This document shows positions 43,870 through 48,184 of a stretch of DNA of 64,000 bases, one piece after another. Source of the stretch: a bacterium (lineage in GTDB: Bacteria > Acidobacteriota > Blastocatellia > HR10); NCBI GenBank assembly GCA_041640655.1, contig JBEPZV010000002.1, forward strand, positions 128,001 to 192,000, read 5' to 3'. Numbering within the stretch: the stretch's first letter is position 1; every line of letters starts with the position of its first letter. The notes under the pieces are model-generated. The model had not been told where the DNA came from and made no database searches. It was given only the letters and a program-made list of their open reading frames with translations. Made by a program: the position numbers and the translations under genes.

Positions 43870-44361
43870 TTATCGCCGTCCAAAGGTGAAGACGATGCCG
43901 ACTGAGAGTCGCGCGTTATTTTGCGTCTCGCCGCCGAAGCGTGTGAAGAGATAGTCGGCCTGCAGCAGTCGAAGCGTGAAGCGCTCATTCAATGGCACAT
44001 CCACACCGCCGCCAAAGACCATCCCGAAGGCGGAGAGCGCTCCGCCATCCCCCAACCGCGCTCCGCCGAACAGAAAATGCGTGAAGGCCGTGACCGTATT
44101 GCGCGCGGCGAATCGAGGCCCCACCGTGTACGCATGGAGGGAGAGGCCCGACCGATAATGACCGCTCACATCGGCGGCAATCCCCAACCAGGAATTCACG
44201 TTCCCCACAATCGAGACATTCCATCCGTGGGAATTGATGGCGTCCGCCAGCCGAGCGTACGAATAGCCAGCGAAGACCTCAACACGAGGGACCTCCTGAG
44301 CACCCCCCTGCTTCACTCCGCACAGGATGAGGCCGAGAACGATACCCAACCTTCTCCGCAT
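43870..44361 (-). CDS. Small outer-membrane beta-barrel protein
   Basis: Signal peptide, EVFAGYSY, GGGVD, QADY, GIVFTF end; ATG after GAGGAGGGG. Confidence 0.8.
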   Translation of the reverse strand: MRRRLGIVLGLILCGVKQGGAQEVPRVEVFAGYSYARLADAINSHGWNVSIVGNVNSWLGIAADVSGHYRSGLSLHAYTVGPRFAARNTVTAFTHFLFGGARLGDGGALSAFGMVFGGGVDVPLNERFTLRLLQADYLFTRFGGETQNNARLSVGIVFTFGRR

Positions 44362-44378
44362 GTCTCCCCTCCTCGCCT

Positions 44379-45101
44379 CTATCGAAGGGTCCCCTCGCCC
44401 ATCATCAGGCGCCATTCGCTCGATGAGACGGCGCCGCGGAGGGCGCCGTCGGCTGCGCCAACGCCTTTTGGTGAGAGGCTCTCGCCTGACCGACTGCACG
44501 CTCGAACGTCCGCGTCCACGCTGCGAGATGTCGCCGCAGCCTCCGCGTCACGGCGCGCGTAAAAACTCAAGACATTCTCCCCCTGTCGAAGCTGCCGCAC
44601 GCGCTCGAACTCACCGTAATGCGTTGCTAAGGCGCGCTTGGCATGATGCATGACGATGAGTATGCCCTCTGGCGCAAGCACCGAGGGCGTGCGCGCCAGA
44701 CGCTCCAACACGGCCTCGTAGAGCTCCGAGGCATACGGGGGATCGAAGAAGATCACGTCAAACGCCTCCCCCCGTCTCCCAAGCTGCTCCAAGGCGCGAG
44801 CCGCATCTTGCTGGAGGATCTCGATGCCCTCGCGAATCCCACAGGCGGCGAGATTTTGCCGAAGCTGTGCGATGACGATCCGCGAGCGCTCAACGAAGGT
44901 GACATGTCGAGCCCCACGGCTGAGCGCTTCAATCCCCACGGCTCCCGTTCCAGCACAGAGATCCAGAACGCGCGCCCCGATCAATCGCGGTCGCAAGACG
45001 TTGAAGAGCGCTTCCTTCAAACGATCGGGAATCGGACGGACCGCTCGCCCCGAGAGCCCCTTCAACCGCCGCCCCCTGTATATCCCCGCGATCACACGCA
45101 C
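44379..45101 (-). CDS. rsmD: 16S rRNA m2G966 methyltransferase
   Basis: MRVIAG..RGRRL, RP..DRLKEALFN, LDL.AGTG, FFDPPY. Confidence 0.94.
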   Translation of the reverse strand: MRVIAGIYRGRRLKGLSGRAVRPIPDRLKEALFNVLRPRLIGARVLDLCAGTGAVGIEALSRGARHVTFVERSRIVIAQLRQNLAACGIREGIEILQQDAARALEQLGRRGEAFDVIFFDPPYASELYEAVLERLARTPSVLAPEGILIVMHHAKRALATHYGEFERVRQLRQGENVLSFYARRDAEAAATSRSVDADVRACSRSGESLSPKGVGAADGALRGAVSSSEWRLMMGEGTLR

Positions 45102-45150
45102 GGAATCATCTTAATCGTGTCGCCCCGGAGGAGGCAATCAGCGATTGGTG

Positions 45151-45193
45151 AAAAAGAAAACCCCACCTCCCTCCGCAGGAGGGACCGGTGGGG
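45151..45193 (-). terminator. Rho-independent terminator after the small-peptide pair
   Basis: CCCCACC..TCCCTCC/GGAGGGA.GGTGGGG stem followed by TTTTCTTTTT. Confidence 0.8.
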
Positions 45194-45226
45194 ATTCGGA
45201 ATACAGAAGGCTCCTCCAGCTGCTCG

Positions 45227-45334
45227 CTACGGCCCCGAGGACACGCCAAGCAGCAGGAACACAAAGAGGAACAGCACCAAAAAGATCACAAGCACCAACA
45301 GGGTCGTCGTATCCATCTGACCTCTCTCGCGCAT
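45227..45334 (-). CDS. 35-aa hydrophobic peptide with a class III signal-like RG/Q motif (paralog 2)
   Basis: GGGAGGAG RBS; MRERGQMDTTTLLVLVIFLVLFLFVFLLLGVSSGP; below the ORF-track cutoff. Confidence 0.85.
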   Translation of the reverse strand: MRERGQMDTTTLLVLVIFLVLFLFVFLLLGVSSGP

Positions 45335-45421
45335 CGTCTACTCCTCCCAATAAGATGAGGCCGATACATCCCCTGCGTCTCGCTAGCGCGATGCCACAGG
45401 GGATCTCTGCTCAGAAGGCGC

Positions 45422-45532
45422 TTAGCCTCCGCCGCCGCCTCCTCCAAGCAGCAGGAACAGGAACAGGAACAAGATCACAAACGCCATCACGAGCACGAGC
45501 GTGAGCGTATCGAGTTGTCCTCTTTCGCGCAT
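45422..45532 (-). CDS. 36-aa hydrophobic peptide with a class III signal-like RG/Q motif (paralog 1)
   Basis: AAAGGAGAGG RBS; MRERGQLDTLTLVLVMAFVILFLFLFLLLGGGGGGG. Confidence 0.85.
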   Translation of the reverse strand: MRERGQLDTLTLVLVMAFVILFLFLFLLLGGGGGGG

Positions 45533-45574
45533 ATCGCCTCTCCTTTGCAAGATCGAGATTCAACATCGGTCCGG

Positions 45575-45603
45575 AGTATACAGAGAGTCCCTGGCATTGT
45601 CAA
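45575..45603 (-). promoter_or_regulatory. Near-consensus sigma70 promoter for the peptide pair
   Basis: TTGACA-N17-TATACT. Confidence 0.8.
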
Positions 45604-45708
45604 GGAAAAAATCGTATGCGCTTTTTCTCGTCGGAGAAGATGGGGCAGCTCGTGGGCTCCCACACGACCTTTGGGGCTCCACCGCAATGGTTGCTATAAT
45701 GCGGTGAT

Positions 45709-46806
45709 GTGAGGGAGACGCTTCTTGGACGAACGCGAGGCGAGCTGAAAGAGCTCCTCAAGGCGCGCGATCCGAAGCCGTACCGGGCGCACCAGCTCTT
45801 CGAGGCGCTCTATCGGCGGCGCATCACGGAGCTGCAGGCGGCGACTGATCTGCCCGCATCGCTTCGGGCGGCGCTCAGCGAGGCATTCGTCATCACCGAC
45901 GTCGAGATCGCCGACGTCTTTCGCGCGAGCGATGGGACGCGACGCTACGTGCTGCGCCTGCGGGATGGGGTGCTCGTCGAGTCGGTGTGGCTTCCCGAAC
46001 CCTATGCCGATACGATCTGCCTCTCGACGCAGGCTGGCTGCCCCTTGGCCTGTGCCTTCTGCATGACGGCTCGGCTGGGCTTGAGGCGAAATCTGGAAGC
46101 TGGAGAGATCGTGGCTCAAGTGTGGCTCATCCTCAACGACATCTACGGTCCGGGGGTGAGGCCGGAGCGGGGTGTCAATCTCGTCCTCATGGGGATGGGC
46201 GAGCCGCTCCTGAATTACGAGAACGTTTTGAAAGCGATCCGACTCTTCTGCGAACCTCGAGGGATGAACATCTCCCAACGGCGGATCACCCTCTCGACGG
46301 CGGGCGTCGTCCCGGGGATTCGGCGCCTCGCGCACGAACCCATCCGCCCGGAACTGGCCATCTCGCTCTCGGCCACGACGAACGCGCTGCGCGATCGGCT
46401 CATGCCGATCAATCGGCGATGGCCGCTCGAAGAGCTCCAGGCCGCATGTCGCGAGTATCCGCTCCGACGGAACGAATGGATCTCCTTCGAATACGTGATG
46501 CTCGACGACGTCAACGATCGTGAGGAGGATGCCCGGCGGCTCGTTCGCTGGCTCCGCGGGATTCGCGCGAAGGTGAATCTGATCCCGCACAATCCGGCTC
46601 CCGAGCTGCCCTTCGCCGCCTCGCCAGAGGAGCGCATACTGCGGTTCCAACACATCCTGCGCGCTGCCGGGATCCCGACATTCATCCGTCACCCTCGAGG
46701 CCGCGAGATCGCCGCCGCGTGTGGACAGCTCGCCGCCCGGCGACGAGAGGACCTCATGATGCTTCTCGCGTCGTCGCCCCCTCGCGATGTCGCAGCTCGC
46801 GAATGA
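45709..46806 (+). CDS. rlmN: Dual-specificity RNA m2A methyltransferase RlmN
   Basis: CLSTQAGCPLACAFC, MGMGEPL, FEYV, NLIP, AACGQL. Confidence 0.96.
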   Translation: MRETLLGRTRGELKELLKARDPKPYRAHQLFEALYRRRITELQAATDLPASLRAALSEAFVITDVEIADVFRASDGTRRYVLRLRDGVLVESVWLPEPYADTICLSTQAGCPLACAFCMTARLGLRRNLEAGEIVAQVWLILNDIYGPGVRPERGVNLVLMGMGEPLLNYENVLKAIRLFCEPRGMNISQRRITLSTAGVVPGIRRLAHEPIRPELAISLSATTNALRDRLMPINRRWPLEELQAACREYPLRRNEWISFEYVMLDDVNDREEDARRLVRWLRGIRAKVNLIPHNPAPELPFAASPEERILRFQHILRAAGIPTFIRHPRGREIAAACGQLAARRREDLMMLLASSPPRDVAARE

Positions 46807-48184
46807 GCTTCTCGTGAATCCCTCCGAAATCTCCATTGGAGAAGACGACGACGACATCCCCAGAGGTGAGTCGCGAACTGAGGTGCCGGACGATCTCCTC
46901 AACGGAGGAGAAGGCGTGAGCCGAACGCCCCCGCTCTCGAAGCGCGCGCGCCAGCTCCGGCGGAGAGAGCCGCGCGTCTTCCGGGACCACTTCGGGGCGA
47001 AACACCGGGCCGATGAGGGCGACATCGGCCAAGAGCAAGGCGTCCTCAAAGGCTCGTTGCATGATCCGAAGGCGCGAGGTCCGCGATCGCGGCTCGAAGA
47101 CGGCGATGAGCCGCCGATCGGGATATCGCTGCCGAAGCGCCTCCAGCGTGACGCGCACGGCCGTCGGATGATGCGCGAAGTCGTCAATGAGGGTGATCCC
47201 GGCGACCTCCGCCTTCACCTCCATGCGACGTCGGACGCTGCGGAAGCTGGCCAGAGCGCGAGCGAGCGCTTCGCGTTCGACGCCGAGCAACGTGGCCGCC
47301 GCGATGACGGCCAGACAATTGCGCACATTGAATATGCCGATCAGCGGCGTGACGAATTCGCCCAGCGAGCGATCGCCATGCCGCACCTCGAACCGGGTGC
47401 CGCGCTCATCCTGGCGGATGCCCACGGCGCGCCATTCGGCCTCCGGCGTCGTGCCAAACGAATGGACCGGACACCAGGCGCCAGCCACGACCTCGCGCAC
47501 GACCGGGGAATCGAAATCGGCGATCACGCGCCCGCGCCGCGGGATGATGTTGATCAATCGCCGAAAGGCCGTCTTCACCGCCTCCAGATCCGCATAGATG
47601 TCCGCGTGATCGAACTCGATGGCGTTCAGGATCACGGTATCCGGCAAATAATGCAGGAACTTCGGTCCTTTGTCGAAGAACGCCGTATCGTACTCGTCCC
47701 CCTCGATGACGAAGTGAGCGCTCTCGGTCCAGCGGAAATTCGTCTCGAAATTCTCGGCGATGCCGCCGATGAGGAAACTCGGGCGCAACCCGCCCTGTTC
47801 GAGCGCCCACGCCATGAGCGAAGTCGTCGTCGTCTTGCCATGCGTTCCGGCGATCACCACCGAATGCCGACCGCGAATGAACTCCTCCTTGAGGACCTCA
47901 GGCAGAGAGACATAGTGCAACTTCGCATCGAGCACATATTCGATCTCCGGATTCCCGCGTGAGAGGGCATTGCCAATGACGACGCGATCCGGATGGGGCT
48001 GCAGATGCTCCGGCCGGTATCCCCGGAAGACGGGGATCTCCAAGCGCTCGAGCAACTCCGACATCGGCGGGTAGATGTCCTGATCTGATCCCGTGACCCG
48101 ATATCCCTTGGCCAGCAGGAGTCCGGCCAAGCCCGCCATCGCCGTCCCGCCAATCCCGATCAGGTGATAGTGGCGCGCGCGCAT
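46754..48184 (-). CDS. mpl: Murein peptide ligase Mpl (MurC-like)
   Basis: GIGGTAM, YPPMS, GTHGKTTT, EGDEYDTAFFDK, DDFAHHPTA, FEPRS. Confidence 0.93.
   Translation of the reverse strand: MRARHYHLIGIGGTAMAGLAGLLLAKGYRVTGSDQDIYPPMSELLERLEIPVFRGYRPEHLQPHPDRVVIGNALSRGNPEIEYVLDAKLHYVSLPEVLKEEFIRGRHSVVIAGTHGKTTTTSLMAWALEQGGLRPSFLIGGIAENFETNFRWTESAHFVIEGDEYDTAFFDKGPKFLHYLPDTVILNAIEFDHADIYADLEAVKTAFRRLINIIPRRGRVIADFDSPVVREVVAGAWCPVHSFGTTPEAEWRAVGIRQDERGTRFEVRHGDRSLGEFVTPLIGIFNVRNCLAVIAAATLLGVEREALARALASFRSVRRRMEVKAEVAGITLIDDFAHHPTAVRVTLEALRQRYPDRRLIAVFEPRSRTSRLRIMQRAFEDALLLADVALIGPVFRPEVVPEDARLSPPELARALRERGRSAHAFSSVEEIVRHLSSRLTSGDVVVVFSNGDFGGIHEKLIRELRHREGATTREAS

Follow-up and report, generated by a model that had tools for sequence, protein, structure and literature searches.

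What could a bacterium do with what looks like a pilin signal attached to no pilin head? The question is raised by a short transcription unit in a 64,000-nucleotide (nt) stretch of a genome from the Blastocatellia (assembly GCA_041640655.1, contig JBEPZV010000002.1, positions 128,001 to 192,000; hereafter the window, in whose coordinates positions are given). The unit lies on the minus strand from 45603 to 45151, between the genes rlmN and rsmD. An earlier reading made from the letters alone (the sequence-only reading) had listed its parts as a promoter, two Shine–Dalgarno (SD) sequences, two very short open reading frames (micro-ORFs; ORF1 and ORF2), a hairpin, and a terminator, and all of these were found (Table 1). 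Each peptide consists of a leader, MRERG, a single hydrophobic helix of membrane length, and a few residues more. We propose that the two peptides are headless prepilins, which would be processed by the prepilin peptidase PilD and would then reside in the membrane. We put the probability of this reading at about 0.5, a figure that includes the further step of pilin-stem mimicry.

Are the micro-ORFs genes at all? The sequence-only reading had suggested searching the rsmD–rlmN intergenic regions of relatives, and we found the unit there in all seven genomes of the genus, counting the host genome (G000, a 3.13-Mb draft of 63.7% GC in 128 contigs). Because the whole unit stands at one place in seven of seven genomes, it is more than a chance arrangement. 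In the intergenic alignment of the genus, the promoter hexamers, the SD sequences, and ORF1 form conserved islands, and the surrounding sequence has diverged. Variable sites in the first 29 codons of ORF1 number 13/4/12 at codon positions 1/2/3. The proportion of nonsynonymous differences (pN) is lower than that of synonymous differences (pS) in 21 of 21 genome pairs for ORF1 (0.126 versus 0.423 for the host genome and G004) and in nine of nine differing pairs for ORF2. Indels in the micro-ORFs are whole codons, and an SD sequence lies 4 to 10 nt 5′ of the start in 13 of 13 copies examined. As judged from their substitutions, these comparisons show that both micro-ORFs are real, conserved genes under purifying selection, and the SD sequences together with the substitution pattern predict that they are translated. 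The earlier claim that selection acts on the peptide is borne out: pN is below pS in every differing pair, and leader changes are almost only synonymous.

The two genes differ in how regularly they occur. ORF2 is not present in G006, which has ORF1 only, nor in G004, which has a GTG-start ORF1 and a second, leaderless ORF1-type copy. At the G004 locus (L007:1501-1903), ORF1 ends early (...LLLV, then the stop), the SD-led leaderless copy (MDTMTL...) follows 35 nt on, then a hairpin, and a stretch with no clear start codon takes the place of ORF2. The more distant ORF2 copies share just 29–50% identity with that of the window, with M1, R2, E3, G5, Q6, and L27–L29 invariant. The hairpin between the two genes has a conserved stem (TCCCCTGTG/CACAGGGGA) and a variable loop across relatives. 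Because at least four T follow it in 9 of 11 loci compared, we take it to be a terminator in most relatives; the window's lineage has lost the T-run and has GTATCGG instead. Where the hairpin terminates, ORF2 would need read-through, and we propose that ORF1 is the core gene of the unit and that read-through gives a smaller output of ORF2.

What sets these peptides apart is their first five residues. ORF1 is built from the leader MRERG, Gln6, Asp8, a hydrophobic stretch up to Leu29, and a Gly tail, with Asp8, Thr9, and Thr11 as the only polar residues in the 24 residues from Gln6 to Leu29. No part of ORF1 is better conserved than its membrane segment, MAFVILFLFLFLLL. Across the family the peptides are 29–37 residues long; with Gln6 counted as +1, an acidic residue at +3 breaks the hydrophobic tract (Asp in 24 and Glu in 2 of 26 unique peptides), and the tail after the tract has 1 to 8 residues (Gly, Pro, Ala, Ser, Thr). 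The sequence-only reading had observed that the MRERGQ common to the two ORFs differs only at synonymous sites (GAA/GAG, GGA/GGT, CAA/CAG), as it does. The same holds more broadly: in 23 leader-bearing gene copies, R2, E3, G5, and Q6 show only synonymous changes (CGC/CGT, GAA/GAG, GGA/GGT/GGG, CAA/CAG), so that Gly5 and Gln6 are invariant, and position 4 is Arg in 21, Met in 1, and Lys in 1. Within the ORF2 class, the leader is better conserved than the membrane helix. Because these leader changes are synonymous only, and because the ORF2 leader is invariant despite 29–50% identity, selection appears to hold the leader fixed at the peptide level, and to do so more strictly than needed for a mere positive-inside anchor, which should allow Lys/Arg swaps and shifts.

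We found that the same leader begins the genus's own major pilin in most of its genomes. The host genome has three N_methyl pilin-like genes, and the best-scoring of these, a major type IVa pilin, starts MNRERG/FSLIELLIVIAIIGIILAIAIP (the slash marks the cleavage site). RERG is common to the micro-ORFs and the major type IVa pilin in five of the seven genomes of the genus (MARERG in G006 and MVRERG in G004), and in two of them, G001 and G003, the pilin leader is MRERG letter for letter. None of four genomes outside the genus has RERG in this position (MKRRQQG, MNKRNRQSG, MKNEAG, and MTKRLGRNQAG). RERG occurs at 9.8e-5 per position in the six-frame translation of the host genome, that is, a chance identity with the host pilin leader of about 1e-4 per position. 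A hydrophobic stretch of membrane length comes after only 3 of the 22 M-x(0-2)-RERG starts in this genome, namely those of the pilin and the two micro-ORFs. In the sister genus (G007), the pilin leader was found in its pilin only. Identity with the pilin leader is, by these comparisons, the distinguishing feature of the micro-ORF family. Gln at +1, in turn, is the residue at the genus's Flp cleavage site, NEKG/QGMAEYALILV. The major pilin has genes for a TPR protein and an ABC-2 permease as neighbors, and no PilS/PilR-type genes flank it.

A peptidase that could cut such a leader is encoded in the host genome, which has a PilD-type gene (A24_N_bact plus Peptidase_A24) in which the catalytic Asp is kept; D148 and G366-D367-x-K369 are invariant in 29 sequences. 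The genome also has an Flp pilin gene adjoining a TadE gene, on a contig other than that of the micro-ORF unit, and PilC and TadB/C-type platform genes, away from the unit. A PF01478 search of the four near-complete genomes of the genus (G001, G003, G004, and G006) found one A24 peptidase gene, PilD, in each and no TadV, and three of the four have Flp. Either PilD matures Flp in this genus or a divergent TadV was missed. If the single PilD also matures Flp, as we infer, it already accepts Gly/Gln sites. The sister genus has a 157-residue TadV-like ORF beside its Flp (G007:C163:1231-2059). The PilD of the genus (L071:19-1308, on contig C83 of the host genome) is 398–430 residues long, versus 280–300 in most other families of the class, and has a long low-complexity insert rich in Ala, Gly, Ser, Asp, and Pro between its N-terminal and A24 domains. 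A predicted complex of PilD with ORF1 scored 0.01 against a mark of 0.32, in a prediction for which no controls were run and which speaks neither for nor against a contact.

How closely do the peptides resemble known substrates? According to the review PMC4471445, a class III signal comprises a hydrophilic leader of 6–26 residues ending in a conserved Gly and, after it, about 21 mostly hydrophobic residues, with Glu5 near-invariable in bacteria; the Gly is critical for prepilin processing and Glu5 always dispensable for it, and Glu5 mutants form no homopolymers yet are incorporated with wild-type subunits. The micro-ORF peptides have the hydrophilic leader and its Gly (MRERG has five residues, one below the reviewed range, and equals the pilin leader of G001 and G003) as well as the hydrophobic tract. 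They share with the type IVa major pilin a short hydrophilic leader with a terminal Gly, identical in RERG, a run of some 21–24 mostly hydrophobic residues with one acidic interruption, and a PilD in the genome. The Flp/Fap pilins of Tad pili (PF04964) are the smallest described pilins, and we take their processing motif to be G/XXXXEY. With these the micro-ORF peptides share very small size, the [KR]G/Q context seen in the genus Flp (EKG/QGMAEY), and, by hand count, a distance of 24 residues from Gln+1 to a Gly.

We therefore describe the locus as a self-contained, strongly promoted transcription unit for two paralogous candidate headless prepilins, each a class-III-type signal with a Gly/Pro-rich tail and nothing after it. 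The topology, the cleavage, and the action on pilus proteins are predictions from this design. The strong promoter would drive the unit, and the peptides would be translated from strong, apparently accessible SD sequences and inserted in the cytoplasmic membrane, the N-terminus facing the cytoplasm. Cleavage after Gly5 by the one PilD-type peptidase of the genus would follow. The product, of about 30 residues, would stay in the membrane with a lone acidic residue close to the end that faces the cytoplasm, as a mimic of the pilin stem (α1N), and would act on the contacts of the membrane pool of pilins: the pilus assembly platform, PilD, or a pilin-sensing kinase. A precedent for the contact step comes from Caulobacter crescentus, in which a 17-residue piece of PilA, CIP, is enough to influence the PleC kinase by way of contacts between membrane helices, and the same paper cites intramembrane sensing between pilin and PilS in Pseudomonas aeruginosa (PMC7196804). 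What these systems have in common with our proposal is a stem that alone acts in the membrane on a kinase; the difference is that CIP was cut out of a full pilin in the laboratory, whereas the micro-ORFs would encode a stem as such, under a strong promoter of their own. We advance a more specific version only tentatively, and think it possible but doubtful: that a stem-only peptide, derived from or converged on the organism's own pilA signal and matured by PilD, serves as a CIP-like decoy or ligand through which the pilus machinery or a pilin-sensing kinase is told the apparent size of the pilin pool, or has it set, or else co-assembles with pilin in the way reported for pilins without Glu5. 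The literature searched yielded no description of stem-only or headless pilins, and the class III signals known to us all form the start of a full-length protein, be it a pilin, a pseudopilin, an archaellin, or one of a few others.

A number of observations weigh against the headless-prepilin reading. In aligned copies, Glu is missing at +5, where Leu, Thr, Val, Ala, Ile, or Met is found instead, and in place of a mature domain (α1C plus head, or the C-terminal part of Flp) there is only the short tail. Neither ORF matched N_methyl (PF07963) at E-values up to 10, with a model that finds the three pilin-like genes of the genome; Flp_Fap (PF04964) likewise gave no match at E-values up to 10, and the EY motif is missing. 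A relation to the host Flp was sought with hhalign and rejected, as only ERGQ and EKGQ aligned (four columns, probability 0.5%). The Leu/Phe-rich helix has no visible similarity to a pilin stem, as read by eye and unscored. Set beside the type IVa major pilin, the micro-ORFs differ in having Gln rather than Phe at +1 and Asp+3 rather than Glu+5, in lacking α1C, head, and N_methyl match, and in being unlinked to pilus genes; set beside Flp/Fap pilins, they lack EY at +5/+6, the C-terminal amphipathic part, a PF04964 match, and a tad locus. The unit adjoins no pilus gene, in agreement with the sequence-only reading: the neighbors are hisS, a hexapeptide transferase gene, a 209-residue ORF, rsmD, rlmN, and a Mur ligase gene. 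The pilin leaders of G002 (MNHERG) and G005 (MNRQQG) have drifted while the micro-ORFs of these genomes retain MRERG, so the two do not co-vary. All 41 genomes sampled from the class have PilD and the peptides occur in one genus only, so that distribution gives no link between them. Finally, small membrane proteins with their N-terminus inside generically share this layout, basic residues ahead of a membrane helix.

These results divide the interpretation offered by the sequence-only reading. Its class III likeness holds up (the leader is the genus's pilin leader, Gln+1 matches the Flp site, Gly5 and Gln6 are invariant, and PilD is encoded), as does its option of a new small-membrane-protein family; its remark that Asp is at +3, Glu+5 is missing, and there is no head domain is confirmed in the aligned copies. 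Membership in the pilin families is not supported: the option of minimal pilins finds no Glu+5, no Flp EY, no N_methyl or Flp_Fap match, and the 0.5% hhalign probability. The peptides thus appear not to be members of the pilin family, and could still be substrates of the peptidase. A filament made of the peptides themselves is unlikely because the tail has only 1 to 8 residues.

Alleles that lack the leader bear on both sides of the question. Three of the 26 unique peptides are without RERGQ[L] and start MDTTTL, METTTL, or MDTMTL, at +2, with the SD and its spacing as before. Between two loci, L054 and L055, the difference is an exact 18-nt in-frame deletion. The leaderless ORF1-type copy of G004 (ORF1b) and ORF1 of L063 show 14 synonymous and 5 nonsynonymous codon differences of 29, and because of this ratio the leaderless form is, on the evidence of substitutions, old and selected. 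Its start, one residue past the proposed cut site, resembles the cleavage product, which fits a leader that is removed anyway; equally, the leader may simply be dispensable, which is a further point against processing. L054, L055, and L063 have near-identical flanks, seemingly those of one species, and among them carry the full-length form, a leaderless form with the same helix, and a leaderless form whose helix resembles the one in G004 ORF1b. Three ORF1 alleles in an apparent single species suggest exchange between copies or strains.

Could the peptides instead be ordinary, lineage-restricted small membrane proteins, that is, unprocessed helices with the N-terminus inside and MRERG as a positive-inside anchor? 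The likeness to the pilin leader would then be a relic of origin or a coincidence, and the peptides would tune an abundant membrane complex or self-associate through a Leu/Phe face. Their length (at most 37 residues, within the limit of 50 for this class), their one membrane-length helix, the lack of any family match, the stand-alone unit from promoter to terminator, and the persistence of leaderless alleles all suit this explanation, and the conserved segment of ORF1 would fit a helix–helix interface. Such proteins, for which we take AcrZ, KdpF, CydX, MgrB, and YohP as comparisons, are likewise single hydrophobic helices, restricted to lineages and easily overlooked by annotation. Those with known partners, however, are usually co-transcribed or regulated, whereas the micro-ORFs stand alone as two paralogues with a pilin-like leader and no partner gene inside the unit; the synonymous-only leader, better conserved than the helix in the ORF2 class, and its improbable identity with the host pilin leader are also poorly explained by a generic anchor. 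We regard this explanation as the main rival, possible but less likely than processing.

The size, hydrophobicity, tandem copies, and narrow distribution of the peptides, and their short transcript with a terminator, also recall type I toxins such as Ldr, Fst, TisB, and Ibs: membrane-damaging, often tandem hydrophobic peptides of about 30 residues that an RNA restrains. The locus gives little sign of such an RNA. In a pattern scan of 44900–45900 on both strands, the unit's own TTGACA-17-TATACT was the sole promoter-like site (shuffles: mean 0.2), leaving the opposite strand without one, though an unusual RNA could escape such a scan, and an Rfam search of 44000–47000 gave no match at E-values up to 1. 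Sequestration of the ORF1 SD is without support because the consensus fold of the 5′ untranslated region (UTR) is weak (–2.07 kcal/mol) and none of its nine pairs covaries. The promoter is near-consensus and apparently constitutive, the unit has a fixed place beside housekeeping genes in seven of seven genomes, and the peptides lack a charged C-terminal tail; toxins of this kind are therefore improbable here. Still less probable is a cis-acting role, in which translation of a Leu/Phe-rich ORF would attenuate transcription into rsmD. Leu, Phe, and Val are indeed abundant in each ORF, a hairpin that terminates in most relatives comes after it, and rsmD lies downstream on the same strand. Selection, however, acts on the peptide itself, the non-hydrophobic leader included; rsmD encodes an rRNA methyltransferase and is no amino-acid biosynthesis gene; and because it has a conserved promoter-like site of its own, 6 nt before its start, it would be independent of read-through from the unit. 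No conserved alternative terminator pairing was seen by eye in the alignments, for which no dedicated search was made, and the Gly-tail codons that might pair with the terminator are not conserved.

How far does the family extend? A profile of 13 peptides found it in the host genome and in six of six other genomes of the genus, and none of 294 other genomes of the class gave a convincing match; two class-wide matches (E-values 0.003 and 0.009, over 17–19 residues of a 59-residue and a 320-residue frame) were judged to be chance. Against 1.84 billion representative proteins, the profile gave five matches at E-values up to 0.001, four of which are family members: predicted proteins of 32–41 residues in public collections, closely related to the micro-ORF peptides. 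The other, P0003 (334 residues, about eleven GQLDPTTLHFPQVE repeats, E-value 2.7e-12), is unrelated and was rejected; because it was caught through the word GQLDPTTL alone, we conclude that a short polar motif can yield spurious profile matches. A degenerate DNA pattern (SD plus MRERGQxD) gave 15 loci in genome contigs, 5 with family peptides and 10 unrelated, and 19 in metagenome contigs, 11 with family peptides and 8 unrelated, and the distinct family peptides collected number 26. Outside the genus, the neighborhood of rlmN differs. By these searches the family is confined to one genus of the order HR10 of the Blastocatellia. The relatives that bear it are recorded as hot-spring bins of Acidobacteriota/Blastocatellia, and HR10 is a GTDB order of the Blastocatellia related to the uncultivated GAL08 group, according to PMC8787282.

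Searches against known protein families gave no match above threshold, which, together with the four true matches among 1.84 billion representatives, upholds the suggestion of a new family. Pfam returned only sub-threshold chance matches for both ORFs (e.g., ATP-synt_8, E-value 0.033, for ORF2), and NCBIfam only sub-threshold ones, the best being Rv3103c_Nterm (E-value 0.0076, 12.4 bits, for member 1, versus a cut-off of 50). The ESM Atlas contains the exact ORF1 sequence and gave no structure; its best feature scores, 0.78–0.79, are for unnamed clusters and lie below the level common for shuffled proteins. A homologue search with a 42-residue TTG-start version of the window's peptide found one protein.

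Table 1. Features of the micro-ORF unit and its flanking genes in window coordinates.
Feature	Position	Strand	Remarks
T-rich tract, UP-element-like	45604..45611	-	Directly 5′ of the –35 hexamer; putative function
Sigma-70-type promoter, TTGACA-17-TATACT	45575..45603	-	Near-consensus, 11/12 matches
–35 hexamer, TTGACA	45603-45598	-	Spacing 17 nt
–10 hexamer, TATACT	45580-45575	-
Predicted 5′ UTR	45533..45568	-	Transcript start placed from the –10 hexamer
ORF1 SD, AAGGAGAGG	45545-45537	-	Within the predicted 5′ UTR
ORF1, MRERGQLDTLTLVLVMAFVILFLFLFLLLGGGGGGG	45422..45532	-	36 residues + stop; follows the SD
Inter-ORF hairpin, ATCCCCTG/CAGGGGAT	45368..45404	-	Between ORF1 and ORF2
ORF2 SD, GGGAGGAG	45348-45341	-	Strong
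ORF2, MRERGQMDTTTLLVLVIFLVLFLFVFLLLGVSSGP	45227..45334	-	35 residues + stop; ORF1 paralogue; leader as in ORF1, membrane segment varies more
Intrinsic terminator, CCCCACC...GGTGGGG, then TTTTCTTTTT	45151..45193	-	Stem and T-run
rsmD promoter-like site, TTGCCT-18-TAAGAT	45108..45137	-	5′ of the GTG at 45101; conserved in genus alignment
rsmD	45101-44379	-	Pfam Cons_hypoth95, E-value 4.8e-53
209-residue ORF	43870-44499	-	3′ of rsmD
rlmN –10-like hexamer, TATAAT	45695-45700	+	6–8 nt 5′ of the GTG start; conserved in genus alignment
rlmN	45709-46806	+	Pfam Radical_SAM + RlmN_N

Is the unit strongly expressed? Its near-consensus promoter predicts high expression. Both hexamers are unchanged in seven of seven genomes of the genus and in nine metagenome loci examined; AATTTTT[C/T]C[C/T], 5′ of TTGACA, is likewise conserved in all seven genomes, and CCGATG...GGAG is conserved in the 5′ UTR of ORF1. 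The fold of the whole 419-nt transcript has z = –3.6, owed mostly to the two hairpins. The unit contains many GGA motifs, for which a possible role as a CsrA-type RNA sponge was considered. In an RNA library, X20, a 443-nt contig spans 45114–45535, a weak hint of expression, as contigs show neither transcription nor its level; depth was 56.5 over the unit versus 5.15 over rsmD and 45546–45900 had no cover, figures that cannot rank expression. A 1785-nt contig of X20, from a more distant relative, matches 45450–45544 and 44911–44975, with 489 letters between the two matches versus 474 in the window. The flanking rsmD and rlmN mRNAs look leaderless, unlike the SD-led micro-ORFs. The 209-residue ORF has a hydrophobic N-terminal stretch, no Pfam match at E-values up to 1e-5, and a C-terminus (...FTFGRR) that recurs nearly identically (...FTFGRR / ...FTFGRH) in the corresponding position of G002 and G005.

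If the proposed cleavage is true, a natural protein that consists of the signal only would add a new kind of substrate for prepilin peptidases, and would give a counterpart in nature to the laboratory finding that a pilin stem alone can signal to a sensor kinase (PMC7196804). Other genomes could be screened for micro-ORFs that bear each organism's own pilin leader. Even on the ordinary reading, as unprocessed small membrane proteins, the micro-ORFs make up a family of small proteins, cleanly delimited and conserved, in a thermophilic lineage that is uncultivated, from a class of small genes that standard annotation largely ignores.

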